DNA of 64,000 nt. Origin: Escherichia phage Murica. Position numbers and translations under genes: made by a program. Where the stretch lies: the sequence record NC_041871.1. One strand, written 5' to 3'. A model generated the notes under the pieces. It was not told the DNA's origin and did not search any database. It saw only the letters and a program-made list of their open reading frames with translations. Of this stretch, positions 1 through 52,215 are shown piece after piece; position 1 is the first letter of the stretch; the number at the start of each line of letters is the position of its first letter.

Positions 1-41
1 ATACAAACCCTTATAGTACAGATATTTAAGTTTTTACTGGT

Positions 42-38262: not shown

Positions 38263-39739
38263 CACACAATTAGCTGCCCGGCTAAAGTGCTGGAGCACCT
38301 ACAATACATCTTTCAACTAAATTTCCCACCACCACAATCACTTACCTTCCACACATGACTGTTTGCTTGTTTAGTGAGCAGTCATGCCTTGACATTCTTG
38401 CCTATCCTGATAAAATTAAGTTCTTCTCTTTTCTTTTACCGAGTAATTCGGGTTTTCTGTTCTCTTCGGTTTGAAGGGGTATGGAGATACACCTGAGTGA
38501 ACATGGTGAACAACCGAACATTTGGCTATGGCATTAGCATGGCGAAGCGGACGGGTGACGAAAGAGGGGCCGGAGGACACCAGTCACTGCCATATGATAT
38601 ATGGGTGATAACCTGAAGAGTCTGAATAAGTGTTTAAGTACCAGTCAGAGGAAAAGGTGAATGGTAGCCGAAGGGGGAGGGGGGTTTCTTGTATCTTTAA
38701 TTTGTATATTATGTATACACTCGTAAACCAATCTCATCTGAATCTGTTTACCACACAAAGTAGATAGGGACAAATATCACCTATTAAACTTGAATTATTT
38801 ATAGAAAATACCACAACACCACTTAAGTCTTTGATTTTACACACAAATCCTACAGATATTCAACCTCTATATTTAACATATTCATAACATATTCCATACT
38901 CTACCTGTCTGATCAATTTACCCAACCACATCCTCCATATTTTCCCTGTCTGTACCACCCCTGCCCCGCCGGGAGTCCCGTCATATCTGGCTTTCCAGCA
39001 AATATCACACCCACAAATATCATTGCCTGAAGAGGGTTTCATCCCATAGTACATGCCTTACCTGAAGAGCGCTTCATACACCACGTAAATTTTTTAATTT
39101 ACCCCCCCTCCCCGCCGCCGGAGTGGTCGGCTTTTCCCACACAGGCCTGAAGAGTCAGCCAGAAATATCTGAACAGGTCCAGTTATACCACGATTTTGAC
39201 CTGACCGACAGGAGTGCTGCCAGGCGGACGGAATGGGAATACTTCTCATTCTTATAATAATTCTCAAATATCGAGGCAGTGAGGCAAATTAATAGGTGAG
39301 GCCGTTCACACAGTGGCACAACATTTGCAATCTATTTTGTGAGGGTGAATGAGAATACCTATCATTGTGAGAACTGTTATCATTACGGGCAATTTAACAT
39401 AATACCCATTATGCGCACCACTGGCGATCCATACAGGGATTGATAACATGAGTTACAGTTTACGCATATAACAATCATATTTCTTACTATTTGTGTGGGA
39501 TATAGTTAGCAGCCGATAGATTAGATATTGACCTGTGGACTTCCAACCGTCTAGACGTCTAAACGCCCACACAACAAGGATTATACATACATTACTGAAT
39601 GTAAACAGGGCCGCAAAAATGCTACCATACCAGATTGTAAATTTTTCATGCAGCACTTGACAAAGAGGAGAAAAACTTGTCTGACACAATATGACATACT
39701 GGGCACATTAAACACACTTTAGACTTAATTGACATGCCT

Positions 39740-39862
39740 GACTGTTTACGCTGTCACTATTCACGCTATTACTATTCACTCCCTTTACTGTTCACGCTCT
39801 TACTGTTTACATGCTTAATGGTTTACATGACCAATAGTTTACATAGCTAACTATTTACATGG
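39740..39862. repeat. array of eight tandem 15-17-bp iterons
   Basis: Head-to-tail units ending TT(T/C)AC(G/A/T) with 15-16-bp period (e.g. ctgtcactattcacg, ctattactattcact, ctcttactgtttacatg, ccaatagtttacatag). Confidence 0.75.
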
Positions 39863-39871
39863 AAATGATAA

Positions 39872-40153
39872 GCCATGCCATTCGTTTGCATGATAACTAT
39901 TAGCAAGTTAATAATCTTTCGCTGGCTATGCCAGGTGACCTTTGGTCACCCCTTCGGGTGTTTCTATGACATAATATAAAAGCAGGGCAACTATTAGAAG
40001 ATCTATAGTTGCCTTGCTTGTTATGTCATGATTAACTAAATACAAGGCAACTATGATCTGATTAATAGTTTGCAAACAAACTATCACGGGGGGTGATGGT
40101 TACTGCTTTTATATTATGTCGCGACTCCGTCGCGCCATGCCATTCGTTTGCAT
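39872..40153. repeat. 262-bp dyad-rich element bounded by exact 20-bp direct repeats
   Basis: GCCATGCCATTCGTTTGCAT at 39872-39891 and 40134-40153; internal inverted repeats GGTGACC-ttt-GGTCACC, GGCAACTAT..ATAGTTGCC, GACATAATATAAAAGCA / TGCTTTTATATTATGTC. Confidence 0.75.
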
Positions 40154-40765
40154 AGTTGCCTTATTGTTACAGATAAAATAATTGTATTGTTAATTATTTC
40201 TTATCTTTCTCTTAGTCATCTAATGATTCCAGTCAGTATAGTAATGTACAGTAAACATTAGACGACTAAAGATTTATATGCTTATAATAACTTACAGTGA
40301 CAATTTCGGACTGTTTACGAAAAATGTTGACACCTGAGCCGATTTATGTTATGCAGTTTACACGAATAATTATTTTATGCAGGTATTGACTATTCCGTTA
40401 TTCTATGGTCGGAATAAATACTTAGCAGTCTATAGAATGGTGACGCTACGTGAATTCTGGAATTTAGTGGCTATAGTTATACCCGATTTTTCACGTAGAA
40501 CACGCTTTTGTGGTTATGTAAGTGTATGACTTATAAAGATTTTTAGTTGTTGACAAGACACTGAAGATATGCATCAGGTTAAATTTTGTGCAATAGCTGC
40601 ATTACGTGCAATTTTGGAAGGAAAAACGTGTAAAAATGGCCCTGCTACCACACAATGAAAGATTATGCAATAGCTATTTTATATGTATGTTTGTACAGTG
40701 TGTGGGATTGATGGCTAGTCAATTATTCCACTTGCCAGGTGGGGACGTTTGTGGTAGGAGAAATA

Positions 40766-41705: not shown

Positions 41706-41978
41706 TTACTTACGGCGGCAGAATTCAAGCGTTTTTAATTGATAATCTTCCTCAGCCTGGAGTACAACCGCCTCGATCATTTCGTTGGCATTGTTGAAGC
41801 CATACCCTTTAGCGAACTCGTCCGCACCACCTTCGTGATCATGTTCTGCGTTCATCGCTTCCACAAAATGGAATTCCAAATTGTTGAGGTAGGGGCTTGA
41901 TGTGCCGTCTTCTTTTTCGATGAGATCCCAAATAGCATTAAAACGTGATTCGACTTCTTGATTAATCCAGCTTGACAT
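41706..41978 (-). CDS. hypothetical protein
   Basis: 90-aa acidic ORF with AAGAGAGGAAAA RBS. Confidence 0.45.
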   Translation of the reverse strand: MSSWINQEVESRFNAIWDLIEKEDGTSSPYLNNLEFHFVEAMNAEHDHEGGADEFAKGYGFNNANEMIEAVVLQAEEDYQLKTLEFCRRK

Positions 41979-42032: not shown

Positions 42033-42061
42033 ATGTTACCCCACCCCATGGCAGATGTCAA
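42033..42061 (-). promoter_or_regulatory. sigma70-type promoter TTGACA-17-TAACAT (minus strand)
   Basis: Upstream of gene 41706-41978; second candidate TTGACT-17-TATTCT at 42138-42166. Confidence 0.5.
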
Positions 42062-42196
42062 CGGTTTTTATAGTTCTTATATGACAGGCAGGCCTGGTGA
42101 TTGTCTCCCCCTGTTCCCAAGTGCCGCCCGTTTAATAAGAATAGCAAAAGGGGCCGAACAAGTCAACCCCAAAATCAGTACCAAAACACTTTTTAT

Positions 42197-42508
42197 TTAT
42201 ACGGTCCGGTCATTGGCCTTTGTCCAGGACCTGGCGATCCGTTTCCCAGTCACCTGGAACGGAGACTGCATTGTGTGTAATGAATCCAGCGTAAGGGAGG
42301 ACCGTTTACGGCGTATCTTCAGGATCGCCAATGTATTGTCCATCTCACGGCCAGGTCCTGGGCGGTATGGAGTGCCTCCAGCGTTAAGGTTGATGATCTC
42401 ATGTATTGAGATCCGGCGTTGTTTTGCTTCCGCATCTTTGAAGATAGCCAGCGGTGGCGCTATACGTTGCCGATACCAATCTAAAACGGTTGGCGTAATA
42501 GCGATCAT
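42197..42508 (-). CDS. hypothetical basic protein
   Basis: 103 aa; start overlaps upstream stop. Confidence 0.4.
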   Translation of the reverse strand: MIAITPTVLDWYRQRIAPPLAIFKDAEAKQRRISIHEIINLNAGGTPYRPGPGREMDNTLAILKIRRKRSSLTLDSLHTMQSPFQVTGKRIARSWTKANDRTV

Positions 42509-42696
42509 ATTTTACCCCCTATGTAGTCAGGTCGGTTTTTCTCTGTCATGCGCTTTAGCAATTCGTGCATGTTACTTATAGCTTGTAGTGTATCCTCTTC
42601 CAGGCTTGAATCAACATAATCAGGATCGTCTATGACCTTTCTATGATTATGATAACGCAGTACCGCCAATACCTTTCTAACTTGTTCAGTATTCAT
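42505..42696 (-). CDS. hypothetical protein
   Basis: 63-aa ORF. Confidence 0.35.
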   Translation of the reverse strand: MNTEQVRKVLAVLRYHNHRKVIDDPDYVDSSLEEDTLQAISNMHELLKRMTEKNRPDYIGGKI

Positions 42697-42712
42697 TTTA
42701 CATCTCCCTTAC

Positions 42713-43003
42713 TTATTGTTGGCGGTTTACGTAAGCTTTACCGTTTACCGTCATCGGCAAATCTTCCAGGTCTGGATCTTCCTTAAGGTCGCGAGCAAGT
42801 TCACCGCACCGGATACCCTCGAATCCGTAGTACTCTGTTGTACCGTCATTAAAAGTTTTAGTGGCAAGGCATAAGCGATAAGTAACCCCGATTCGATTGA
42901 CGGCATGAATATCCGTTAGATTAACCTCTTTTGCCAGCTCATTAGCCATTGCAGGCGCACTAAGTCCAACAACCAGGGCAACCACTGCGATCATCTTTTT
43001 CAT
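42713..43003 (-). CDS. secreted (periplasmic) small protein
   Basis: N-terminal signal peptide MKKMIAVVALVVGLSAPAMA with AxA cleavage site; two Cys in mature part. Confidence 0.5.
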   Translation of the reverse strand: MKKMIAVVALVVGLSAPAMANELAKEVNLTDIHAVNRIGVTYRLCLATKTFNDGTTEYYGFEGIRCGELARDLKEDPDLEDLPMTVNGKAYVNRQQ

Positions 43004-43094
43004 TGTGCCTATCCTCTTTCTGCTACGTTTAAGGCGGCGGTAACCGCCTGTTTATGATTTGTTGGTTAATTTTCGGGTATCGGTATAAATTAAA

Positions 43095-43310
43095 CTATGC
43101 GGTACGCTCAACTATAACAACGGTTTGGGGGATCTCCCCTTCCACCACTAGTAAGGCCTTTTTCTGCGTGATAGATATCTTTACCCGTTGCAGCGTGGCG
43201 GTGAAGTCTTTCATTTCGTCACGCGGTGTTTTAGTGCAGTACCAGATCTCAGGCTTGCCGATCTGTAAGTTGCGTAAAAATTCTGTTTTGCCCGTTTTGT
43301 TAGTGATCAT
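43095..43310 (-). CDS. hypothetical protein
   Basis: 71-aa ORF. Confidence 0.35.
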   Translation of the reverse strand: MITNKTGKTEFLRNLQIGKPEIWYCTKTPRDEMKDFTATLQRVKISITQKKALLVVEGEIPQTVVIVERTA

Positions 43311-43501
43311 TTGCCAACCTCACCCGATACCGTTGGAAGACAAGATCATATTAGACATGGTTGCAATCAGGCCAATACCCAGGGCAATAATCAAGATCGC
43401 TGCATCGATTAATTTCTGTTTCATGGTGTTTATTCTCTTCTGTTAGTAACCTTATTCATGGGGCCGCTACCACAGCCCCAGGGTAAGGCGGCTATGTGCT
43501 T

Positions 43502-43747
43502 TTAGTGTTTCATTCCAACCATCGCGGCACGGATCGCCGTAGTGCTGTACTTGAAGCCGTCCGGGGTCTTATCTTGTCCGGTTAGCTCCAGAAAAAGCAT
43601 CATATCCCGCGCCGCATCATTACGATTAGCATTAGCGTTAATAAAGCCTTGGGCCAACCGGTACAATGACTCATCGTTATTAATCCAAAGGCTTACATTC
43701 CAATGAGTTTTGTTTTTGTAACCGTTATAACCTTTATTGCTTTTCAT
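43502..43747 (-). CDS. hypothetical protein
   Basis: 81-aa ORF. Confidence 0.4.
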   Translation of the reverse strand: MKSNKGYNGYKNKTHWNVSLWINNDESLYRLAQGFINANANRNDAARDMMLFLELTGQDKTPDGFKYSTTAIRAAMVGMKH

Positions 43748-43839
43748 GGTGTTTACCTCTTCTTTGTTCCGGGGTGGCGGATCATTCTACCACCTTATGT
43801 ATTATGCTTTGTTAGATGGTTGTTTGTTGTCAAACTATT

Positions 43840-44019
43840 TTAACGATAATCATCGTACGCTTTATTAACCTGGCGAATATAACATTCAAAAGCTAGATCA
43901 ATAGATTCATATTCACGGATATACTCACCATAGGAAACCACATACATTTCTATAGCTTCCTCATATGCGAGGAGAATAGAATCTAAGCCTACGATCTCGG
44001 TCTTTGCAATAATAGCCAT
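43840..44019 (-). CDS. small acidic protein (59 aa)
   Basis: ATG 44017-44019 after GAGGATAAAAATC; downstream of promoter 44071-44098; below ORF-track cutoff. Confidence 0.35.
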   Translation of the reverse strand: MAIIAKTEIVGLDSILLAYEEAIEMYVVSYGEYIREYESIDLAFECYIRQVNKAYDDYR

Positions 44020-44070
44020 GATTTTTATCCTCTTTGTGGTTGGTGGGGCTTGTTGCTCCCTTTGATTTAT

Positions 44071-44098
44071 ATATTACAGTTTTATATGGTCATGTCAA
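44071..44098 (-). promoter_or_regulatory. sigma70-type promoter TTGACA-16-TAATAT (minus strand)
   Basis: Consensus -35; adjacent to A10T5 homopolymer tract 44107-44121. Confidence 0.5.
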
Positions 44099-44104
44099 CT
44101 ATTT

Positions 44105-44332
44105 TCAAAAAAAAAATTTTTCTGCTGTGATATTCTTCCCGGTAGGGTTCGCTACTTTCAAAATTTTATCATGCACTGGACGCCCAAAAGAATAAGCGCC
44201 GTACACAGTAAACCAATAATCGCCGTCAGGTTGTACTATTACCGCCGCATATGGTACGCCTTTTTCGTTTTTGCTGACAAAATAGATCACATTGCCATTA
44301 ATAGCCTCAGCGCGTTTAATTTGTTCCATCAT
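44105..44332 (-). CDS. hypothetical protein
   Basis: 75-aa ORF. Confidence 0.4.
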   Translation of the reverse strand: MMEQIKRAEAINGNVIYFVSKNEKGVPYAAVIVQPDGDYWFTVYGAYSFGRPVHDKILKVANPTGKNITAEKFFF

Positions 44333-44386
44333 GATGATTTACCTCTCTTTATTTTCATAATTGGGGCCTTTTCGGCCCCGCCAGGT

Positions 44387-44671
44387 TTATTTATTGATAG
44401 CGTGCAGCGGGAAAGCTACGCCAGGTTGATAAATAACCTTTACAACCTCATCAGGACAAAAGAAGTTGCAGAACTCACCGCAGTAGGCCTCATCCTCTTT
44501 CAACTCTTCATTAACATACTCAAAAAAGTAGTCGATGCTTGGATAATCCTGGCCGGGATTATAGTCAACCATCGTTAATAATAACTCTTGATCATTCCGT
44601 AGGATATGCATACCCGCTTTTAAGTATTTTGCTTCCATTTCTACTACATCGCCAGCGGTAACAATAGCCAT
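44387..44671 (-). CDS. hypothetical protein
   Basis: 94-aa acidic ORF. Confidence 0.4.
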   Translation of the reverse strand: MAIVTAGDVVEMEAKYLKAGMHILRNDQELLLTMVDYNPGQDYPSIDYFFEYVNEELKEDEAYCGEFCNFFCPDEVVKVIYQPGVAFPLHAINK

Positions 44672-44873
44672 GATTTTAACTCCTATCTATCTGGTCAATG
44701 ATTGGGGGCCTCCCCCCTCGACAACTCTTATTATCCATATTGTCGGGAATGATGCAAGTACTTCTTTAAAAATTTTTTAAGCGCCTTAGGGCCGTTGTAA
44801 CGTCAAAACAATAAAGGCTATGCGATTGCATAGCCTGCTAGTGTTTAGGTCGCTGTAGGCCCTGCCTGGGGCC

Positions 44874-45224
44874 TTATTTTGCATTCTTGCCTGTATTGCC
44901 GCCACGGTACCAGCGTTTGCGGTGAAAATGGTAATAATCCCCCTCGGCATTAAACATCAGATGATTTTCAATAACCAGCTTACGAAGGTGGGCCGGATCT
45001 TGTTCCATTCTTGCCAGATTCCGGCGGCTGTTACGTAAACGGATAAATTCCATATTCAGGCCGTTGATTGCAGCATGGATGTTAAAGTAACCACCTTTGA
45101 GACGTTCACGCATGGCGTTAAGCTCAACACAATATACAGATTTCTCACAAATCAAGGTATTAGCTAGGGCGCGGACCTGGGCAAGGGGGTTAAGCTCATT
45201 AAGGTAATATAATTTAACTTTCAT
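44874..45224 (-). CDS. hypothetical basic protein
   Basis: 116-aa ORF. Confidence 0.4.
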   Translation of the reverse strand: MKVKLYYLNELNPLAQVRALANTLICEKSVYCVELNAMRERLKGGYFNIHAAINGLNMEFIRLRNSRRNLARMEQDPAHLRKLVIENHLMFNAEGDYYHFHRKRWYRGGNTGKNAK

Positions 45225-45241
45225 AAAATCACCTGTTGAAA

Positions 45242-45550
45242 TTAGTTTGAGAAAACATCGTTCACAATAGCGATCACAATGCCGCTCACCTTGTCACGGT
45301 CAACAATGCACAAATCACCATAGATCATGTGGTAGTCTGGATGATCTTTCACAGAATAGTCAATAAGTGTTTTCTTGTCATCCAGCTTCGTAACTTCCAT
45401 TCTCATAACGATATGAGAATCATCAAAGGCATTATTCCGAAAAGTCATAGCCTGACCGCCAGGGCACCCAGTGATCTCCACTTCCACACCATCTACGATC
45501 TGACCATCAAAGAAATAAAGATTATTAGCCTGGATAAACATGTCTATCAC
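45242..45550 (-). CDS. hypothetical protein
   Basis: 102-aa ORF with AAGGAG RBS, downstream of 45-bp element copy 1. Confidence 0.45.
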   Translation of the reverse strand: MIDMFIQANNLYFFDGQIVDGVEVEITGCPGGQAMTFRNNAFDDSHIVMRMEVTKLDDKKTLIDYSVKDHPDYHMIYGDLCIVDRDKVSGIVIAIVNDVFSN

Positions 45551-45587
45551 TCCTTGTTAACTGCGTGGTATTTTAACAGGGTTTAAA

Positions 45588-45632
45588 TTTACTTTATTGA
45601 TGGCCCTGGAGTCAAGGCCATCTAAAAATAAA
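45588..45632 (-). promoter_or_regulatory. conserved 45-bp promoter/hairpin element, copy 1
   Basis: Minus strand TTATTTTTA-GATGGCC-ttgactccag-GGCCATC-AATAAAGTAAAT; TTGACT in the loop, 18-nt spacer, TAAATT. Confidence 0.55.
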
Positions 45633-45634
45633 TT

Positions 45635-45835
45635 TTACAGGCCTACAATCTCTTTGATTCGTTTAACCGCTGCCTCAGCGCCTTGGGGGTAAAAATTATG
45701 GTAACCAATCACGCGAGTGATACTAATCGCCGTTTGATGATCTTCATAGTCGCCCTTGAAGATTTCTTGACCGTCAATCAGCACGGCAATTTTTTCTTCT
45801 TTTTTGAAGTTAATAACGCGGATATTGTTGCTCAT
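45635..45835 (-). CDS. hypothetical protein
   Basis: 66-aa ORF with AGGAG RBS. Confidence 0.45.
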   Translation of the reverse strand: MSNNIRVINFKKEEKIAVLIDGQEIFKGDYEDHQTAISITRVIGYHNFYPQGAEAAVKRIKEIVGL

Positions 45836-45978
45836 TTTGTTTCTCCTTTCTGGTTTTTGTGGTGGTGGGGATTAGCTCCCCCCGTTGATTGTTATTATCC
45901 ACATTCCGGACCGGATTGCAACACCCCGGAAGAAAATTTTTTTTTTTTTTAAAGATAGGCCCCCATGATCGGGGGCCG

Positions 45979-46098
45979 TTATCAGTTACTTACAGCGATA
46001 AAATACATCCCTACGCCTAACAATATTTCAAGGGCGATGATCTCAAGCCATACCATAGCACGGCGCGCCTTATCGGTGCGGGGCTTATCCTTGGTTGT
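45979..46098 (-). CDS. small hydrophobic peptide (39 aa)
   Basis: ATG after GGGAGGGGG; single TM-like segment; followed by hairpin GGCCCCC-atcat-GGGGGCC; below ORF-track cutoff. Confidence 0.3.
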
Positions 46099-46121
46099 CA
46101 TCGTCTCCCCCTTCCCTCCTG

Positions 46122-46343
46122 TTAGCAGTTACGTGGTTTGCAATGGCCCCCAGGAGTATTATCACCACGCACATTGCAAGAAAAATTATCTCTGTCGTTG
46201 TTCGATCCATTGTTATAAAATTCCTCAAGATCAGGCCTGAAAATAAAGCGTTCGTTATTGAATCCGTCACGCCAGGCGGCTGGCTTCAAATCTTCACTAA
46301 AGGGATTAATTAACGTGGCATTATTTAAACGGTTGGCCCACAT
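46122..46343 (-). CDS. hypothetical protein
   Basis: 74 aa from internal ATG; competes with an overlapping out-of-frame TM ORF (46085-46210). Confidence 0.3.
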   Translation of the reverse strand: MWANRLNNATLINPFSEDLKPAAWRDGFNNERFIFRPDLEEFYNNGSNNDRDNFSCNVRGDNTPGGHCKPRNC

Positions 46344-46692
46344 ATTTTCTATTCCTCTCAAATAGGCGATCCGCCTCAGTTAAACATATCTCATGGGCTT
46401 GATCTCTGGTTTTAGCCTCATCAAAAACCTGTTGTGCCAGGCTGCAGCGTAGGGAGACTGGAAGATCACTATAATAGGCGTTGACAAACGTTTGAGCGTC
46501 GTACAGGTCTGAAAATACTTTACCCTTTCTATTATTCCCCTTGTCAACAATTGCAAGGATAACCAATACAATAGTTGCGACTACCCCCAGGAAAATAGAT
46601 ATAATAAACCATAAAAAGGCGGATCTTCCCATCTTGCCAGCGATCCAGGCGTTAAACAAGGCAACCAATACAGCCAAAATAATAAATTCCAT
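46321..46692 (-). CDS. membrane protein with two predicted TM helices
   Basis: Start moved to ATG 46692 after AAAAGAGG; FIILAVLVALFNAWIAG and AFLWFIISIFLGVVATIVLVILAIV. Confidence 0.5.
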   Translation of the reverse strand: MEFIILAVLVALFNAWIAGKMGRSAFLWFIISIFLGVVATIVLVILAIVDKGNNRKGKVFSDLYDAQTFVNAYYSDLPVSLRCSLAQQVFDEAKTRDQAHEICLTEADRLFERNRKYVGQPFK

Positions 46693-46756
46693 TCTATGTA
46701 CCTCTTTTACAGTTCTGATTAACAATAAGGCGGCAAATATGCCGCCTGTTACCTGA

Positions 46757-47137
46757 TTAAAAATTATCGCCGTAAATCTTTCCGCTTTCTACCCATACCA
46801 CCACGCGAGGCATACTATCCCACACGTCTTGTTTTAGATTGAGCGCGTGCAATTCTTCGGTGGTGCTCATACCGGGCACGGGCTGATTGTATACTGCAAA
46901 ACGACCGCCTGCATAATCATAGGCCAGGGTTAAATCACACTGGATCATCTTTTTGATCATGGCATTAAGCATGGCGTTAGCCGCATATTGATCACGTTTT
47001 AAAGGCAACTCTTTGATTAGTTTGCGATAGTTTTCGATATGGTCGCACACTGTTTCACGTGGAAGATCTTTCATATCCTCGCGAAAGGTAACCAGGTTAA
47101 ACATAACGGTGTCAATGGCTTTAGTGGTGCTTTTCAT
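46757..47137 (-). CDS. hypothetical protein
   Basis: 126-aa ORF. Confidence 0.45.
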   Translation of the reverse strand: MKSTTKAIDTVMFNLVTFREDMKDLPRETVCDHIENYRKLIKELPLKRDQYAANAMLNAMIKKMIQCDLTLAYDYAGGRFAVYNQPVPGMSTTEELHALNLKQDVWDSMPRVVVWVESGKIYGDNF

Positions 47138-47225
47138 GATGTTTTCCTCTTTGTTTTGTGTGGGGCAAACGTCTTGCCCCTTGAGTTTTAATATAGCAGG
47201 TTTTTAGGTTATTGCAACACTTTAT

Positions 47226-47849
47226 TTATGAAAAAGTCATCTCGCCATATTCATCCACATCAAACCGCCAATCATTGGCCTCGATAAGGCCGATCAGGTT
47301 TTCGGTAGTAAATTGTTCAAGATAAGCTTGCTCCAGGTCTACGTAAACCTTGCGGGATAGCTCCCGTACCGTCTCGGTGATCAGCTCTTCCAGCTCTTCA
47401 ACTTTGTCCTCTTGCTTGGTGGTCAGGTCTAGCCAATTAGTATCGATGCACCCTCCTATTGTGTTTTCGTGGTGATAATGGCTAAACGGGATACGTTCAA
47501 CACTGGCTGATAGTTCGCCATCGTGCATTGTGCCGAACAAGTGACGAATTGATCGGAACTTGGTCAGGGCCTTTACTTTACGCAAGAATTTTTCTAAATC
47601 CACGTTTTCCGCACTGATTGACGCGCCGTCACCCTGGCACCAAAAGCCTGACCAATGTACTTCGGTATCTTCAAGGCCATACTCTGGAAAAACATATTCT
47701 TTATAGTATTCAATTACACTTTCTGCAAAAAAGTTATCCCCGCTGTGTTCTTCTCTTTCGCGTACCATTTCAATGGCTTTTTCTTTTTGTTCGTCGGTCA
47801 GCACGTCGAAAGATAAATTGTAACCTGTGGTAATGTTAACGGTGGTCAT
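47226..47849 (-). CDS. hypothetical acidic protein
   Basis: 207-aa ORF downstream of promoter 47908-47935 and a leader hairpin. Confidence 0.5.
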   Translation of the reverse strand: MTTVNITTGYNLSFDVLTDEQKEKAIEMVREREEHSGDNFFAESVIEYYKEYVFPEYGLEDTEVHWSGFWCQGDGASISAENVDLEKFLRKVKALTKFRSIRHLFGTMHDGELSASVERIPFSHYHHENTIGGCIDTNWLDLTTKQEDKVEELEELITETVRELSRKVYVDLEQAYLEQFTTENLIGLIEANDWRFDVDEYGEMTFS

Positions 47850-47877
47850 GATATTTTCTCCTGTTTTCTTTGTTAGT

Positions 47878-47896
47878 GGCGGGAAGTTTTCCCGCC
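47878..47896 (-). promoter_or_regulatory. conserved 5'-leader hairpin
   Basis: GGCGGGAA-N3-TTCCCGCC between the -10 and the RBS of gene 47226-47849; near-identical at 50390-50408. Confidence 0.5.
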
Positions 47897-47907
47897 TATG
47901 TTTTTTA

Positions 47908-47935
47908 ATTATACTTATTGAGATTTACTTGTCAA
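47908..47935 (-). promoter_or_regulatory. sigma70-type promoter TTGACA-16-TATAAT (minus strand)
   Basis: Consensus hexamers. Confidence 0.65.
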
Positions 47936-48185
47936 CACTATTTTTTAAATTATTGTGGCGCAAAATGTTTAAAATCTTCTCAACGTCATCAACACGGCGG
48001 CAATTTTTAAACGCTACCAATTGCCCCATGATTTTAATCACTGGGCGGCCTTGCCAGTGCCCCTGAAGAAAGCGCGCCTTGACTTTATCGGTGGAACTAT
48101 CACGCCACCAAATAGCCTTGTTGTTGCAGTAGTAAAAATTATTCAGGATAACATCAACTTTATCAAAATTTTTTAATTTACGCAT
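47925..48185 (-). CDS. hypothetical protein
   Basis: 86-aa ORF; stop lies within the downstream promoter. Confidence 0.4.
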   Translation of the reverse strand: MRKLKNFDKVDVILNNFYYCNNKAIWWRDSSTDKVKARFLQGHWQGRPVIKIMGQLVAFKNCRRVDDVEKILNILRHNNLKNSVDK

Positions 48186-48363
48186 GGCGTTTACTCCTTT
48201 CTCTCTTTGATGTGGTTAGTATAGCTAACCTGTTGACGATGTCGATGATATTTTTAACGCCACAAAACGGCCCTGGGCGATGTTTTCAGGTTAAAGGGGG
48301 CGATTGCATAGGTGGGGGCCTTTTTGGCACTTATAGGGCCAACCAGGGGCGCTATTCGTAGGA

Positions 48364-48395
48364 TAGAAATAAAAAGCCCCGCACAATGGCGGGGC
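48364..48395 (-). terminator. intrinsic terminator (minus strand)
   Basis: Minus strand GCCCCGC-N6-GCGGGGC followed by TTTTTATTTC, just after the stop of gene 48404-48601. Confidence 0.75.
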
Positions 48396-48403
48396 GTTGG
48401 TTG

Positions 48404-48601
48404 TTATTTGTCTTTATGGCGGTATCGTTCTGCCTGTCGTTCACGTTCCAAAAGCAGGCCCGGTAATTTGCGATCATAGTGATTCCTCCAGATCTTCCCG
48501 AACCTTTTCGGCTTATTCAGTTTATTGTTACGCTGGCGGCGTTCCGGCAGCTCTTCGGAATCGTGGGGGCGCTTTACAATTTTTTCGAAATTAATTTTCA
48601 T
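48404..48601 (-). CDS. hypothetical basic protein
   Basis: 65-aa Arg/Lys-rich ORF. Confidence 0.4.
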   Translation of the reverse strand: MKINFEKIVKRPHDSEELPERRQRNNKLNKPKRFGKIWRNHYDRKLPGLLLERERQAERYRHKDK

Positions 48602-48945
48602 AAATTTCCCCCTTTACTGATTTCAATATTTGCCTGAATCGCCCGGATACGCCGTTTTATAACCTCCTGATCCTTGCAATCATATCCCCAAAAGTCTACG
48701 ATCTTTGCGCCTCCGGCCTTTAGGCGGTATAGTGTTTCTTGCATCTTGTAAGCTGGGATCGGTCGCGGTGTTACCTGGTCGCCTCTCTCATCTTTGTACT
48801 TGATTATGTAGTCTTCGTTGTCGTTGAATACCCAAAATGGGTATTCTGTGAGCGCGTTGCTATCTTTTTCGTTTTTAGATTGGATCTTGTTTACAATTAA
48901 AGCCGTAGCAATAGCGCCAATAATAAAACTAGCCCCGCTGATCAT
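48598..48945 (-). CDS. hypothetical protein with N-terminal TM segment
   Basis: ISGASFIIGAIATALIV N-terminus. Confidence 0.45.
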   Translation of the reverse strand: MISGASFIIGAIATALIVNKIQSKNEKDSNALTEYPFWVFNDNEDYIIKYKDERGDQVTPRPIPAYKMQETLYRLKAGGAKIVDFWGYDCKDQEVIKRRIRAIQANIEISKGGNL

Positions 48946-49019
48946 GTACTTTCTCCTTTCATGGTGTTAATAAATTATCTTTATAGATGGCCCTGCAGCC
49001 AGGACCACCGAAAAAATAA

Positions 49020-49265
49020 CTATTTCACAATGCCTACAAAACAGATCCCGCCTTCACCTATATAAGCAATATCGGTCACTTTGTAGTTGGTCAAGATCTG
49101 TTTATTCAGATCATTAATAAAATCGGTCATTGCGTTGGTGTAGTTGTCTTCCGTATCTAAGGCATAATCCCAGGTGTAAACCTTTTTACGTCCGAAGCCT
49201 TTTACCATGATACGGGCGCTTTTGGTGTTGGTAGGGGCATAATATTTGGTGATTAGTGCTGCCAT
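49020..49265 (-). CDS. hypothetical protein
   Basis: 81-aa ORF with TAGGAG RBS, downstream of element copy 2. Confidence 0.45.
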   Translation of the reverse strand: MAALITKYYAPTNTKSARIMVKGFGRKKVYTWDYALDTEDNYTNAMTDFINDLNKQILTNYKVTDIAYIGEGGICFVGIVK

Positions 49266-49306
49266 GGTTTTAACTCCTATGCATTAGTTCAGTGTTAACA
49301 GTATAA

Positions 49307-49352
49307 AGTTTACTTTATTGATGGCCCTGGAGTCAAGGCCATCTAAAAATAA
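49307..49352 (-). promoter_or_regulatory. conserved 45-bp promoter/hairpin element, copy 2
   Basis: Identical core to copies 1 and 3; TTGACT-18-TAAACT on the minus strand. Confidence 0.55.
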
Positions 49353-49354
49353 TC

Positions 49355-49696
49355 TTACTCGTTTTCTTCCAGCTCCGCAAGCTCTTCTTTTGCTTCTTCC
49401 AACTCTGTCTGCAATTCCTGGTATTCTTCATCGTCCTCAATATCCAGGCTGTCGATGTAGTCGCTAAATCCGCAGCGGTAAGCGATAGGATCTAGCTCCT
49501 TGAGGATACGCGACGGAAGAAAAGAAATGTTTCCGATCATAATTTCGCCGTAGATCTCGTCCAACCATTCATCATAGTTTTCGTCGTACTTGTCCTCGTC
49601 GATTTCAAAGTTATCGATCTTGTCCTCAAGGTCTGCGATCTGTTTTTTCAGTGCGGCAACCTGAATAGCTTTTTCTGCGGCGGTCATAGTAGTCAT
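49355..49696 (-). CDS. acidic coiled-coil protein
   Basis: 113 aa, very acidic; AAAAGGAGAAAAA RBS. Confidence 0.45.
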   Translation of the reverse strand: MTTMTAAEKAIQVAALKKQIADLEDKIDNFEIDEDKYDENYDEWLDEIYGEIMIGNISFLPSRILKELDPIAYRCGFSDYIDSLDIEDDEEYQELQTELEEAKEELAELEENE

Positions 49697-49747
49697 GGTG
49701 TTTTTCTCCTTTTGTGTGTTCTGGGAAGTTTTCCCGTTTATGTGTTT

Positions 49748-49775
49748 AGTATACTGATCTAAGTTAGCTTGTCAA
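49748..49775 (-). promoter_or_regulatory. sigma70-type promoter TTGACA-16-TATACT (minus strand)
   Basis: Consensus hexamers upstream of gene 49355-49696; leader hairpin variant CTGGGAAGTTTTCCCG at 49721-49736. Confidence 0.6.
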
Positions 49776-49895
49776 TTAAAAGTTTAAGAAAAATTTTGCG
49801 ACACTGTTGGCGCTACCCATCAACATTTGCGCCAGGATGTAACCAATGATGCAAACGATAATAGTTACCTTTGTGTGCTGGCGTGTAGTACTCAT
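49776..49895 (-). CDS. small hydrophobic peptide (39 aa)
   Basis: ATG 49893-49895 after AAAGGGGGC; TM-like segment; stop abuts the -35 of the next promoter; below ORF-track cutoff. Confidence 0.35.
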   Translation of the reverse strand: MSTTRQHTKVTIIVCIIGYILAQMLMGSANSVAKFFLNF

Positions 49896-49927
49896 CTTCA
49901 AGCCCCCTTTTTAGCTTAACTGGGATT

Positions 49928-49973
49928 AGTTTACTTTATTGATGGCCCTGGAGTCAAGGCCATCTAAAAATAA
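49928..49973 (-). promoter_or_regulatory. conserved 45-bp promoter/hairpin element, copy 3
   Basis: Same core as copies 1 and 2; immediately after the stop of gene 49976-50371. Confidence 0.55.
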
Positions 49974-49975
49974 AC

Positions 49976-50371
49976 TTAGTAAGTTTTCAGTACTTTCCCG
50001 TCCAGTCTGTCAAGCTGGATCTCGATAGCTGCAGAAAACCTATTATAAACCACATCGCCCATGGAGTCCAGCCAATCTATGACGTTATACACCTGCTCTT
50101 TATTCTTGCAAGTCCGGATCCGTTTCATTACGTAAGACGGATCAATATTAGTGCTCTCGTTGTTGTGGTCATGCGCCTGGCCTGCTGCATTAGTTATAGA
50201 TTTTACAACCACCTGAAAGGGCTTTAAGGTGCCTTTTGCGTTCATCTCACGCGCTTTTGCGGCGCGGTTGTTATATGTTACACAACGGCGGCAAATGTTG
50301 ACCAAATGCATATCAATAATTTTTTCATCGTTTGCCAGTTCGTTCATGATGCGGCGTACGTTCTTATTCAT
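49976..50371 (-). CDS. hypothetical protein
   Basis: 131-aa ORF with promoter and leader hairpin upstream. Confidence 0.45.
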   Translation of the reverse strand: MNKNVRRIMNELANDEKIIDMHLVNICRRCVTYNNRAAKAREMNAKGTLKPFQVVVKSITNAAGQAHDHNNESTNIDPSYVMKRIRTCKNKEQVYNVIDWLDSMGDVVYNRFSAAIEIQLDRLDGKVLKTY

Positions 50372-50389
50372 GATCTTTTTCCTTTGTGT

Positions 50390-50408
50390 TGGCGGGAAAC
50401 ATTCCCGC
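50390..50408 (-). promoter_or_regulatory. conserved 5'-leader hairpin
   Basis: GGCGGGAA-aca-TTCCCGCC between promoter and RBS of gene 49976-50371. Confidence 0.5.
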
Positions 50409-50418
50409 CTTTTGTGCC

Positions 50419-50446
50419 TAGTTTACTTGAATTTTGCAGCGTGTCA
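50419..50446 (-). promoter_or_regulatory. sigma70-type promoter TTGACA-16-TAAACT (minus strand)
   Basis: Consensus -35. Confidence 0.55.
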
Positions 50447-50453
50447 ATGATTT

Positions 50454-50852
50454 TTATTCGTGGGCGCATGTTACAATGTGCTTTTTATAGCCTAGATGAT
50501 CAGCAAGTGCCGACAAAAACTCTTCTTCATAGATCCAGCCGTTGGCAGTGATCCCCATAGCATTTAATGCGCTCTCAAGTGCTGCGTTAGCTTTATCATA
50601 ACCGTATCCGCTGGCCTTGCCGCCAGTATAACCGTACTTATTGTTCTTGCTGTCGTGCATCCAAAAGACGCAATAATGAGTATTACCGCTGGAGGCGGCA
50701 TAATACCGGATCTCAGCTACTTCGTGCAAATTATTGTCATCGTCCAGGCCCACCAGATTATAAGCCTTATAAAATCCACGATCACGGCGGCAGTTCTTGA
50801 CATCAGAAAAAGAAAAGTCCGCATTATCAAAATTAAAGGTGGTGGTTTTCAT
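50454..50852 (-). CDS. hypothetical protein
   Basis: 132-aa ORF. Confidence 0.45.
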   Translation of the reverse strand: MKTTTFNFDNADFSFSDVKNCRRDRGFYKAYNLVGLDDDNNLHEVAEIRYYAASSGNTHYCVFWMHDSKNNKYGYTGGKASGYGYDKANAALESALNAMGITANGWIYEEEFLSALADHLGYKKHIVTCAHE

Positions 50853-50916
50853 GATTTTATCCTCTTAGTGTCTTTTGTGCTTTTAGTGTATTTGGTGTCG
50901 TACTATATGTCAATAC

Positions 50917-51114
50917 TTATTTTTTATTAAACCAGTGGTTGATCTGGCCTTTTGTCAGGGCGCAACGATTAAGCTGTTGCCGGGTATAGCTCTGACCACG
51001 ACGGAATTTATAAAGGCCTTGCCCGTTGTTGATGGTTACATCCACCCGGCAAATCACTTGATCCGTGACCACCTGGCGAGTGTTGCGACGTACTTTGATT
51101 CCGTAGGCGTTCAT
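50917..51114 (-). CDS. hypothetical basic protein
   Basis: 65-aa ORF with AAAGAGGATAAAAAATC RBS; TTGACA-containing promoter-like sequence upstream. Confidence 0.4.
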   Translation of the reverse strand: MNAYGIKVRRNTRQVVTDQVICRVDVTINNGQGLYKFRRGQSYTRQQLNRCALTKGQINHWFNKK

Positions 51115-51458
51115 GATTTTTTATCCTCTTTGTTAATTAGTGCGGTGTTGTTCACCTTGCGATAATAAGAATAACAAGAACTGCCCGAGCTGTCAACCAT
51201 TATGTAAAATTATTTTTTTGGGTAGAATTCTCCAGCCGCCACCCCTGCCAGGTTTGCAAGCTTTCACTCTCCCACCTGGTCAGTTAGGTCCTGCTAGGGC
51301 TGGCCCCGCCAGGTTGCAGCAGTTGACGCACTATGTTAGAAAAATTTTTTGAAAAGTGTTGACAACGGCCCCACCAGGTGGCACAATATACCTATCGAAA
51401 GGACGGCAGGCACCGGTGACGGGGGAGACAACCACTGGGGATGGGCGCTGCATAAAAT

Positions 51459-51477
51459 GAGAACGGTTATCATTATC
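51459..51477. promoter_or_regulatory. Fur-box-like AT-rich palindrome, site 1
   Basis: GAGAACGGTTATCATTATC; 11-nt TTATCATTATC identical to one arm of the Fur box consensus GATAATGATAATCATTATC. Confidence 0.4.
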
Positions 51478-51502
51478 ATTTAAAAATTTATGCAAAAAAT
51501 CC

Positions 51503-51533
51503 TTGCTTTCTTTGTCCTGTGTGATACTATAAT
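51503..51533 (+). promoter_or_regulatory. candidate promoter inside non-coding island
   Basis: TTGCTT-16-TGaTACTAT (extended -10) overlapping TATAAT at 51528-51533; no ORF downstream. Confidence 0.35.
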
Positions 51534-51594
51534 AACAAGCCGGGGCAACAGGGGCCGGGAGACAATCACCGGGCCTGCCCGTTATTCTGCAAAC

Positions 51595-51613
51595 GAGAAT
51601 GATTATCATTCAA
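51595..51613. promoter_or_regulatory. Fur-box-like AT-rich palindrome, site 2
   Basis: GAGAATGATTATCATTCAA; 13-nt AATGATTATCATT identical to the Fur box consensus core. Confidence 0.4.
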
Positions 51614-52215
51614 AATTCTAAATGAGAACTCCTCGCATTTAATAAATTTAATTAGCACGCTAATTACACTCCGTAACAATTTACTATAAAATAGTATCCA
51701 CTAAAATATTCCCATATAGAAATTTTAAAAATCCATTTCTGAAAACGAAAAATCGATTTCGTCCCTAAAAATTTCAGGCCTAGATCCGGAACGATTTCCA
51801 GAAAATCCGATTCAGAAAACGAAAAACAGATCGAGTACTGAGAAATTTATCGAGAAAAATTTTCAGAAAATCCAAGCCCTGAAATGAAAAGTAGATCGAG
51901 TACCTGGAAAGCTGCACCGCAACTTCAAGATAGTGGTTAGATTGTTACCATAGAAGGTCAAGGGTAAGTGGAGGAAGTTCTAGTAGAGGGAGGTTAGCAT
52001 GTGTGGGAAATCTATAATGGTGGCCTGGAATATGGTGCAAACGATAGGATGAGTTATTCAGCTTGTCGCGCCTACTCTGAAAAATCCATTTTAGTTTTCG
52101 ATCCATTTTCTGATTTTCTAAGAATTTTAAAATATCCGGCCCGGTGAAATATCAAAAGGAGGAAATCCATTTTAGAAATCCTCCTTATACTTGATATGCC
52201 AGGAATTTTCAAGTA

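Follow-up and report, generated by a model that had tools for sequence, protein, structure and literature searches.

The window analysed here, a 64,000-nt stretch of the rV5-like Escherichia phage Murica (NC_041871.1), belongs to the genus Vequintavirus and matches phage LL12 at 98%. The intergenic region at 42.1 kb and a gene-free island at 51.1–52.2 kb share a 28-nt block, GGAGACAATCACC[A/G]GGCCTGCC[T/C]GT[C/T]AT. The island (51115–52215) contains two tandem cassettes, palindromes, iterons and a hairpin. It is taken to be the box labelled 'non-coding' on the map of the rV5 genome paper (Fig. 2), coordinates not having been compared. The GC-rich repeat is the core of a non-coding control cassette close to early promoters, of which we found no published description. 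BLAST detects copies at only two places per genome; the window itself holds three.

The strings on which the first-pass annotation based the repeat are all in place, and shuffle tests indicate that the repeat is real and non-random. The best local alignment between the 42-kb intergenic region (minus strand) and the island (plus strand) extends from the promoter through the 28-nt block and scores 25, compared with 12.9 ± 1.8 in shuffles (maximum 21; 0/300). The string GGTGATTGTCTCCC occurs exactly at 42096–42109 (plus) and 51557–51570 (minus) and with two mismatches at 51423–51436 (minus), three matches in the window versus 0.39 expected. With at most one mismatch, GAGACAANCACC has five matches versus 1.13 expected, a number reached in 0 of 100 shuffles; two of the five (49697 and 60155) look like chance matches.

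On the strand that reads GAGACAA, the cassette consists of a sigma70-like early promoter, 24–37 nt, the box GAGACAAnCACC, 13 nt and an AT-rich hexamer, followed in the island cassettes only by a Fur-box-like palindrome. The 13-nt spacer is usually nGGnCTGCCCGyy, and the hexamer is TATTCT, CATATA or similar. The motif first reported is a real repeat but only the middle of a larger conserved cassette of promoter, box, 13-nt spacer, hexamer and palindrome. Its orientation tracks the promoter and not the genome, being on the minus strand at 42 kb and on the plus strand in the island.

The 42-kb cassette is driven by a predicted early promoter, TTGACT-17-TATTCT (42166–42138, minus), located within a terminator-like hairpin (42170–42150). 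The core box GAGACAATCACC (42096–42107, minus) is positioned 30 nt downstream of the -10 element, and the 13-nt spacer AGGCCTGCCTGTC and the AT-rich element ATATAAG follow (42076–42095, minus). A second promoter, TTGACA-17-TAACAT (42033–42061, minus), lies between the cassette and gene 41706–41978 (minus).

In the island, the predicted promoter P1 (TTGACA-17-CACAAT with a TG extension; 51359–51387, plus) drives unit A, the core box of which is the diverged copy GAGACAACCACT (51425–51436, plus), followed by the 13 nt GGGGATGGGCGCT and then GCATAAAAT. The first-pass annotation described 51405–51440 as a rearranged version of the repeat. It is instead a tandem copy of the 51.5-kb unit that has diverged, oriented alike and 134 nt upstream of it (register 134–136 nt), with an extra arm. 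This upstream inverted arm, GGCAGGCACCGGTGA (51405–51419, plus), is present in unit A only; it is the reverse complement of the 3' flank of the 51.5-kb unit, and its CCGGTG pairs with CAC(C/T)GG around the box. Of all sites in the window, the palindrome ATGAGAACGGTTATCAT (51457–51477) comes closest to the Fur-box consensus (16/19). Promoter P2, TTGCTT-19-TATAAT (51503–51533, plus), occupies a place at which all relatives keep a promoter (TTGCAA, TTGATC or TTGACA; spacer 16–17; TATATT or TATTAT). The core box of unit B, GAGACAATCACC (51559–51570, plus), is 25 nt downstream of the P2 -10 element and is followed by the 13-nt spacer GGGCCTGCCCGTT (51571–51588, plus), whose final T starts the hexamer TATTCT. 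Two further palindromes, ACGAGAATGATTATCAT (15/19 to the Fur consensus) and ATGAGAACTCCTCGCAT, span 51593–51638, a region in which GAGAATGATTATCATT is identical in most relatives examined. P3, composed of two overlapping promoter-like sites (51663–51707, plus), points into three iterons of 62–74 nt, GAAAACGAAAAAnnGATCGAGTAC (51710–51910); the relatives have analogous GATCGAGAACC repeats. A hairpin read by eye, AAGGAGGA-N15-TCCTCCTT and then TTTGATATTT on the minus strand (52156–52186), probably terminates the right-hand gene cluster; the terminator scan did not call it, the loop exceeding 8 nt.

Across about 20 phages, a same-strand promoter matching at least 9/12 ends 24–37 nt upstream of 22 of the 28 cassettes, compared with 7.9% of random positions at the same loci. 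The further promoter beyond the cassette is at a variable distance. The repeat, initially placed just upstream of promoters, is indeed non-coding and promoter-adjacent, but on the GAGACAA strand it is 24–37 nt downstream of a promoter and upstream of another only at 34 to about 95 nt.

Loss of the motif from syntenic positions in related phages, the outcome that would tell against the first-pass annotation, was looked for, and the motif is present there. The cassette occurs at both syntenic places in Vequintavirinae and Stephanstirmvirinae, and both loci carry it in Vequintavirus, Certrevirus, Seunavirus, Mydovirus, Phapecoctavirus and Justusliebigvirus. The columns AA.CAC show no variation across 24 aligned cassettes, and all complete cassettes have 13 nt between CACC and the AT-rich element, even with the 13 nt themselves replaced (alia, KKP_3264). 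Within the genus, units A and B are 96–97% identical and the flanking non-coding DNA 77%; judged from such comparisons, the cassette is under stronger constraint than neighbouring non-coding DNA. The genes downstream of the cassette vary between lineages, and therefore no common target gene is evident. At the free positions, paralogues of a single genome differ in their alleles (L139/L292, alia), indicating that their similarity does not reflect recent gene conversion. The motif does not come from the host, and bacterial genomes carry it at chance frequency only. As a side observation, a structured RNA without an Rfam family is very conserved in relatives.

The cassette is not a structured RNA. 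Rfam models give nothing above gathering score in the window or in the relatives; the only four sub-threshold matches (E 0.38–5.9) are elsewhere in the island, none over the cassettes, and a tRNA search found none. Checked for RNA structure and covariation, as the first-pass annotation had suggested, the cassettes have no consensus fold (RNAalifold, -0.88 kcal/mol) and no covariation, hand-drawn helices pairing 69.1% of cells versus 69.0% in shuffles. Fold z-scores of individual cassettes span -2.4 to +1.7. Within the genus, all three window copies can form imperfect hairpins that present the box at their tip (-17.5 to -21.7 kcal/mol, z -1.2 to -2.4). In unit A, a C-to-T change in this phage retains a G-U pair, so the cassette may be read at the RNA level.

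One such reading, which we consider improbable, is a Vequintavirus-specific small RNA or attenuator: P2 would yield a hairpin RNA of ~48 nt with the box in the loop as a base-pairing seed, ending at the U-rich GUUAUUCU. The position of the box at the hairpin tip in all three copies is consistent with it, as is the unit B leader (-21.7 kcal/mol, z -2.4), which is directly followed by five U in 8 nt. However, the U-tract is missing in unit A and in the 42-kb unit, the leaders of relatives are no more stable than shuffles (z +1.4, -0.95, -0.4, +1.7 and 0.05), covariation is lacking, and a terminator scan of the island gives nothing. A coding role is highly improbable. As first reported, the peptide TGRPGDCLP is encoded in both ORF 42033–42581 (plus) and ORF 51331–51609 (minus), and the motif would be part of each. 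The dismissal of these ORFs as meaningless is very probably right, although the second, of 92 aa, is assigned to PHROG family 14993, is annotated as a CDS in some GenBank records and is open in six Vequintavirus genomes. Against its being a gene, it has no Pfam match, its ATG lies within a palindrome without a Shine-Dalgarno sequence, it covers two promoters and both cassettes, and gene calls conflict between records. Outside the genus the same DNA blocks are kept, with indels of lengths not divisible by three and without a shared ORF, and the 42-kb ORF is antisense to the PHROG-supported gene 42197–42508. Database ORFs over the island and cassette are probably gene-caller artefacts and are flagged here as such.

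Read purely as DNA, the cassette could be a nested regulated promoter, in which the box replaces the -35 element, the hexamer 12–13 bp downstream serves as the -10 element and the palindrome at +1 to +25 is the operator. The fixed spacing from box to hexamer, the GACA common to GAGACA and TTGACA, and the hexamer TATTCT of many lineages, which is also the -10 element of this phage's early promoters at 42143–42138 and 51173–51168, are in line with this, and 29% of cassettes reach a nested-promoter score of at least 8/12 versus 8% of controls. The arrangement resembles T4 middle promoters (MotA box, about 12 bp, -10 element) in that a box other than a -35 element and an AT-rich hexamer stand a fixed 12–13 bp apart, nested shortly downstream of early promoters. 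Nevertheless, we regard it as unlikely. With a nested sigma70 promoter defined by at least 9/12 matches to TTGACA-16..18-TATAAT and by A and T at hexamer positions 2 and 6, no cassette qualifies (maximum 8/12), and none is on the promoter scan list. The conserved CACC and TGCCCG would fall in the promoter spacer, and 10 of the 28 cassettes have no TAnnnT hexamer (TATTCC in phiTE, CATTCA in Mydo and CATATA in the 42-kb copy of the window among them). Only two to three copies per genome, compared with dozens in T4, do not make a promoter class, and the sequence of the box is unrelated to that of T4. No MotA or AsiA homologue of rV5-like phages is known to us; the rV5 paper has only an Srd-like gp11. 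The GC-rich part might otherwise be functionless, hitch-hiking on a mobile regulatory cassette copied round the mosaic early region by recombination. The inter-copy similarity takes in the promoter, the flanking genes differ between lineages and the 42-kb promoter sits inside its hairpin, a situation similar to that of the promoter-early stem-loop (PeSL) cassettes of T4-type hyperplastic regions, in which an early promoter fused to a stem-loop is repeated between small early genes that vary among relatives. Here, in contrast, the box is downstream of the promoter, outside promoter and stem-loop, and is kept at two loci only and not at each small gene. Both loci retain the box and its 13-nt geometry in two subfamilies while the sequence around them is replaced, the paralogues of one genome have different alleles, and the units are more conserved than adjacent non-coding DNA, which makes hitch-hiking quite improbable. 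Finally, the island may be the phage origin, in which transcripts from the tandem rightward promoters P1–P3 activate replication in the AT-rich iteron region or serve as its primers. The G-rich leader would then help to form a stable RNA-DNA hybrid or be the binding site of an initiator, and the 42-kb copy would be a secondary origin. Several promoters are all directed into three GATC-bearing iterons and A/T tracts, an architecture of promoters into repeats that is kept in all relatives, and the island runs against the flanking genes, which are on the minus strand. The origin of rV5 has never been located, nor could the rV5 paper place it; the paper reports a T7 gp4-like primase-helicase in the phage. 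Transcription-primed origins (T7 phi1.1A/1.1B with its AT-rich region; T4 ori(uvsY) and ori(34)) likewise have tandem promoters firing into an A/T-rich, repeat-bearing, gene-free stretch, but have no counterpart of the iterons and palindromes of the island. An origin here is nonetheless not likely: cumulative GC skew has no turning point at the island and turns at about 37–38 kb, the strand switch of the genes; no DnaA boxes were found in the island; a second repeat-bearing gene-free region, at 38.6–40.3 kb, is an equally good candidate; leader G-runs are not universal, W70 being without any; and the 42-kb copy has no iterons.

The reading we favour, plausible but tentative, is that the cassette is a promoter-proximal cis-control element, recognised by primary sequence, that gates transcription into the iteron-bearing island and one early operon. 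We infer that it would act in cis on RNA polymerase newly started at the early promoter and would be recognised as a site of two parts at a fixed spacing. A factor from the phage or the host may bind the cassette DNA or the first 30–75 nt of the nascent RNA and modify the polymerase or block it. The box lacks palindromic symmetry and matches no binding site known to us. In the island, the transcription so gated would run rightward into the iterons, a region that is a candidate for replication or control; at 42 kb, it would enter the early operon that begins with gene 41706–41978. The neighbouring palindromes might supply a second input as roadblock or operator. In a rather unlikely extension of this proposal, the cassette and the Fur-box-like operators would together be the switch of a replication or control region that transcription activates, and with it a strictly virulent phage would read a signal of its host. 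The timing of the polymerase run from the early promoters into the iterons would be set by iron (via Fur) or by a different host regulator that recognises ATGAGAA-N3-TTCTCAT, and a so far undescribed factor, phage- or host-encoded, would be loaded on polymerase at the box GAGACAAnCACC. The most often isolated myoviruses of E. coli, Salmonella and Klebsiella include the rV5-like phages (Vequintavirinae and their phi92/phAPEC8-like relatives), which are used in biocontrol. The gene-free island is kept across two subfamilies, and the cassette, among its best-conserved parts, is a precise experimental target.

Among known systems, Fur-repressed promoters of Enterobacterales resemble the adjacent palindromes and not the motif itself. 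The island palindromes at 51459 (16/19) and 51595 (15/19) are the top two sites in the 64-kb window by match to the Fur consensus GATAATGATAATCATTATC; there are four sites of at least 15/19 versus 0.37 expected, and a 16/19 match arises in 2.5% of shuffles. However, the palindrome family has the consensus ATGAGAA-N3-TTCTCAT, with G where Fur hexamers have T, and these predicted Fur sites are 55–75 nt downstream of the P1 and P2 starts and not over the promoter. The pseudo-ToxI antitoxin mimic of phiTE was considered and rejected: the escape locus, with its ToxI-like 36-nt repeats, is at 106,714–106,772, and the cassette homologue is at 39,566–39,624. The lambda nutL and nutR sites and the HK022 put sites differ from the cassette in several respects. 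The boxA consensus is CGCTCTTA or GCTCTTTAACAA, and neither string is present in the cassette sequences read; there are no boxB or put hairpins with covariation support. No N-like protein was identified, the small proteins near the cassettes having PHROGs of unknown function only and no Pfam match, and the island copies aim at a convergent gene cluster and not along an operon. In other respects the cassette is like nut and put sites. There are a few copies per genome, each a short way downstream of an early promoter at a distance that varies, and the motif lies in the predicted transcript. Orientation follows the promoter, so that copies are inverted on the genome, and the site is made of two parts at a set distance, what is conserved being mainly the primary sequence.

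The motif strings quoted in the first-pass annotation are present at 42084-42112 (plus strand), in the 42-kb intergenic region, and at 51545-51585 (minus strand), in the gene-free island. The 14-mer GGTGATTGTCTCCC occurs as two exact copies plus one copy with two mismatches, versus 0.39 expected. Local alignment of the 42-kb intergenic region (minus strand) with the island (plus strand) gives a top score of 25, versus 12.9±1.8 for shuffles, of which 0/300 reach 25. The block shared within this alignment is GGAGACAATCACC[A/G]GGCCTGCC[T/C]GT[C/T]AT, and weaker similarity extends back through a promoter. The first-pass annotation also described a rearranged version at 51405-51440. A copy does lie there, but instead of being rearranged it repeats the 51.5-kb unit in tandem and in diverged form, oriented alike and with a register of 134-136 nt.

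When each copy is read on the GAGACAA-carrying strand, all three copies in the window follow a sigma70-like promoter. The 42-kb copy comes after TTGACT-17-TATTCT (42166-42138, minus strand). The tandem island copies, units A and B, are preceded on the plus strand by P1 (TTGACA-17-CACAAT, 51359-51387) and P2 (TTGCTT-19-TATAAT, 51503-51533), respectively; the spacer of P2 exceeds the limit of the promoter scan. The box GAGACAAnCACC is followed by a 13-nt spacer and an AT-rich hexamer, to which the island copies add a palindrome. Further along, past unit B, the island has another palindrome (the third), two promoter-like sites, three iterons, and a hairpin, the probable terminator of the minus-strand gene cluster to the right. 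The 42-kb region has a second promoter (42061-42033, minus strand), positioned between the cassette and the gene at 41706-41978. The minus-strand early promoters at 42 kb (42150-42170) and at 51168-51196 have the sequence GGTTGAC-N17-TATTCTTATTA in common, and the former is located inside a terminator-like hairpin, indicating that the terminator of one gene overlaps the promoter of the next.

Across 41-53 kb, the window shares 98% identity with Escherichia phage LL12 and 92-96% with many rV5-like phages (Vequintavirus). About twenty records labelled 'Campylobacter phage' (MG0656xx) also reach 98% identity to this type of E. coli phage, and their host label is doubtful. In the annotated relative isim, the genes of this stretch are all on the minus strand, and a gene gap of ~1 kb matches window 51115-52215. 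The map in the rV5 genome paper has a box labelled 'non-coding'. The island varies most in the GC-rich segment to the left of P1 (51199-51355), where, compared with isim and the BASEL phages, this phage has deletions of 22 and 16 nt that remove a 58-aa ORF annotated as isim_29. Downstream of the iterons, the island contains a plus-strand 17-codon ORF (MCGKSIMVAWNMVQTIG; 51999-52052) five bases 3' of GAGGGAGG.

BLAST detects two places per genome, and it traces two parts far beyond the genus: the right-hand half of unit B and, from the 42-kb region, the stretch comprising promoter and box. We examined loci of Certrevirus (phiTE, CR9, and F4M1E), Seunavirus (GAP31 and LNA4), Mydovirus (Mydo), Phapecoctavirus (phAPEC8 and phiWec179), Justusliebigvirus (alia and KKP_3264), unclassified Vequintavirinae (ChuuTotoro and W70), and a dozen IMG/VR contigs. 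The island-type cassette is present in all of these relatives, and the 42-kb type is present in the lineages checked for it. Among 24 aligned cassettes, the AA.CAC columns do not vary, and C, TGC, G, and AT hardly do. Every complete cassette places the AT-rich element 13 nt from CACC, including those of alia and KKP_3264, though the spacer there is GGAAGATCTTATC and not GGGCCTGCCCGTT. The distance from the upstream -10 to the cassette floats between 24 and 37 nt; a promoter matching at least 9/12 positions ends 24-37 nt upstream of 22/28 cassettes, versus 7.9% of random positions in the same loci. Concerted evolution of the paralogues (the island-type and 42-kb-type cassettes of one genome) can be discarded, as alia and the L139/L292 genome each bear different alleles in their two copies, and so can a conserved downstream gene as the target, as the paralogues have no downstream gene in common. 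A reverse-strand promoter over the palindrome, TTGAAT-18-CAGAAT, is set aside: on inspection by eye it occurs in this phage, GAP31, and F4M1E but is lost in phiTE, Mydo, phAPEC8, and W70.

The palindromes belong to a family with the consensus ATGAGAA-N3-TTCTCAT and are arranged in arrays, at 51457-51477, 51593-51613, and 51622-51638 in the island and, as another three, at 39233-39383. Read as putative Fur boxes, those after units A and B provide the top two consensus matches of the window, at 16/19 and 15/19. Matches of at least 15/19 number four in the window versus 0.37 expected, and 16/19 is reached in 2.5% of shuffles. The sequence GAGAATGATTATCATT is unchanged in phages of hosts ranging from Escherichia to Pectobacterium and Proteus, and relatives have up to five palindromes in a row.

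Relatives carry between P1 and P2 a near-invariant element of ~75 nt, GCCACCCCACGGCGnAAAGGCGGGGCTAAC(G/A)TACC-hairpin-GGT(C/T)GGAAGGTGGATCGCCGG (RNA1; L002:1334-1412 in phiTE, and also L003, L004, L125-L130, L134-L148, and L153). It is absent from the window, and in Vequintavirus unit A sits in its place. The consensus fold is -18.3 kcal/mol, one pair changes from G-C to A-U in 8/18 sequences, and the hairpin varies in length; the element has no Rfam match and no tRNA call. We regard RNA1 as a candidate for a new structured RNA. In L146 (IMG/VR 2974574029), its 3' end is the exact insertion point of an ORF (MKKVYGVGVNDSASPIKGCRFYATWRNMLQRCY...) that we take to resemble a homing endonuclease.

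For the motif itself, the RNA structure and covariation analysis proposed in the first-pass annotation reveals neither a consensus fold nor covariation, and stability is not consistent. The RNAalifold consensus has three pairs (-0.88 kcal/mol). In hand-drawn helices (the 5' leader with CCCGyyAT; CCGG with CCGG flanking the box), 69.1% of cells are paired versus 69.0% in shuffles, and double changes are fewer than in shuffles. Single-sequence folds have z-scores of -2.4, -1.8, and -1.2 in this genus and of +1.4, -0.95, -0.4, +1.7, and 0.05 in relatives. Fold stability exceeds that of shuffles in this genus only. A genus-specific small RNA is considered improbable. No tRNA or tmRNA is found, and Rfam gives no credible match for the window (gathering score), the island (E≤10), or three relatives (E≤1); the island search returns only four sub-threshold matches, all away from the cassettes. 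The pseudo-ToxI locus of phiTE is 67 kb from the cassette homologue and is dismissed. Mimicry of the host is likewise dismissed, with no match in any E. coli genome at E≤1, and a bacteria-wide scan with GAGACAANCACCNNNNNTGCCCG gives 68 matches versus 69.4 expected by chance (596 Gb), 0 of them with the palindrome context. Only one plasmid record, CP057073.1 (17314-17449; 97.8% identity to the island over the full query), matches in full, and it is a misfiled phage genome: labelled E. coli plasmid, from cattle faeces, it is 137.5 kb, the size of a Vequintavirus genome. The peptide TGRPGDCLP, reported in the first-pass annotation as common to two ORFs, is indeed encoded in both. A minus-strand 92-aa ORF (51331-51609) runs over both cassettes, has a PHROG family (14993), and carries a hypothetical-protein annotation in several GenBank records. 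However, these records disagree with each other on the gene calls, the ORF has no Pfam match and no ribosome-binding site, and outside the genus the DNA blocks persist with frame-breaking indels and no shared ORF. The ORF is probably a gene-caller artefact spread through databases, and a coding motif is very hard to credit.

Within the genus, units A and B have 96-97% identity and 92-93% invariant columns, versus 77% identity for flanking non-coding DNA, and we consider it slightly less probable still than a small RNA that the motif is a passive hitch-hiker. A promoter nested in the cassette, with the box at -30 and the hexamer as -10, is unlikely: such a sigma70 promoter is not conserved, no cassette scoring above 8/12, and the TAnnnT hexamer is missing in 10/28 cassettes, including the 42-kb copy of the window. 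Judged from sequence features, it is plausible, at similarly low odds, that the island as a whole serves as an origin of replication. The tandem promoters fire into the three iterons (51710-51910; 62-74 nt, each with GATC and an A-tract), to which the GATCGAGAACC repeats of relatives, with AAAAATTTTTT ahead, are analogous. The rV5 genome paper did not place the origin in the circularly permuted genome, and the phage has a T7-like primase-helicase. However, the island has no skew signal and no DnaA box, and a rival exists in a second large gene-free region, at 38600-40300, with tandem repeats of 15 nt x4.4 (39741-39807) and 16 nt x2.5 (39805-39844) and the three palindromes of the second array. 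The deposited genomes of isim, EdH4, and slur12 were opened near this region.

We tentatively favour a cassette that would act in cis on the polymerase shortly after initiation, as a factor-loading or roadblock site, and that may be recognised either as DNA or as the leading 30-75 nt of the RNA. This reading draws on the orientation tied to the promoter, the variable promoter distance with rigid internal spacing, the conservation of primary sequence without covariation, the presence of 2-3 copies, and transcription of the island against the neighbouring genes and into the iterons. In the literature searched, neither the motif nor the cassette nor the organisation of the island is described. 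What is new is the sequence of the cassette, its geometry, and its placement within a conserved non-coding island; the kind, a promoter-proximal cis-regulatory cassette of a phage early region, is familiar. Although the defining sequence and hairpin of a nut site are absent from the cassette, the nut site is closest to it in anatomy.
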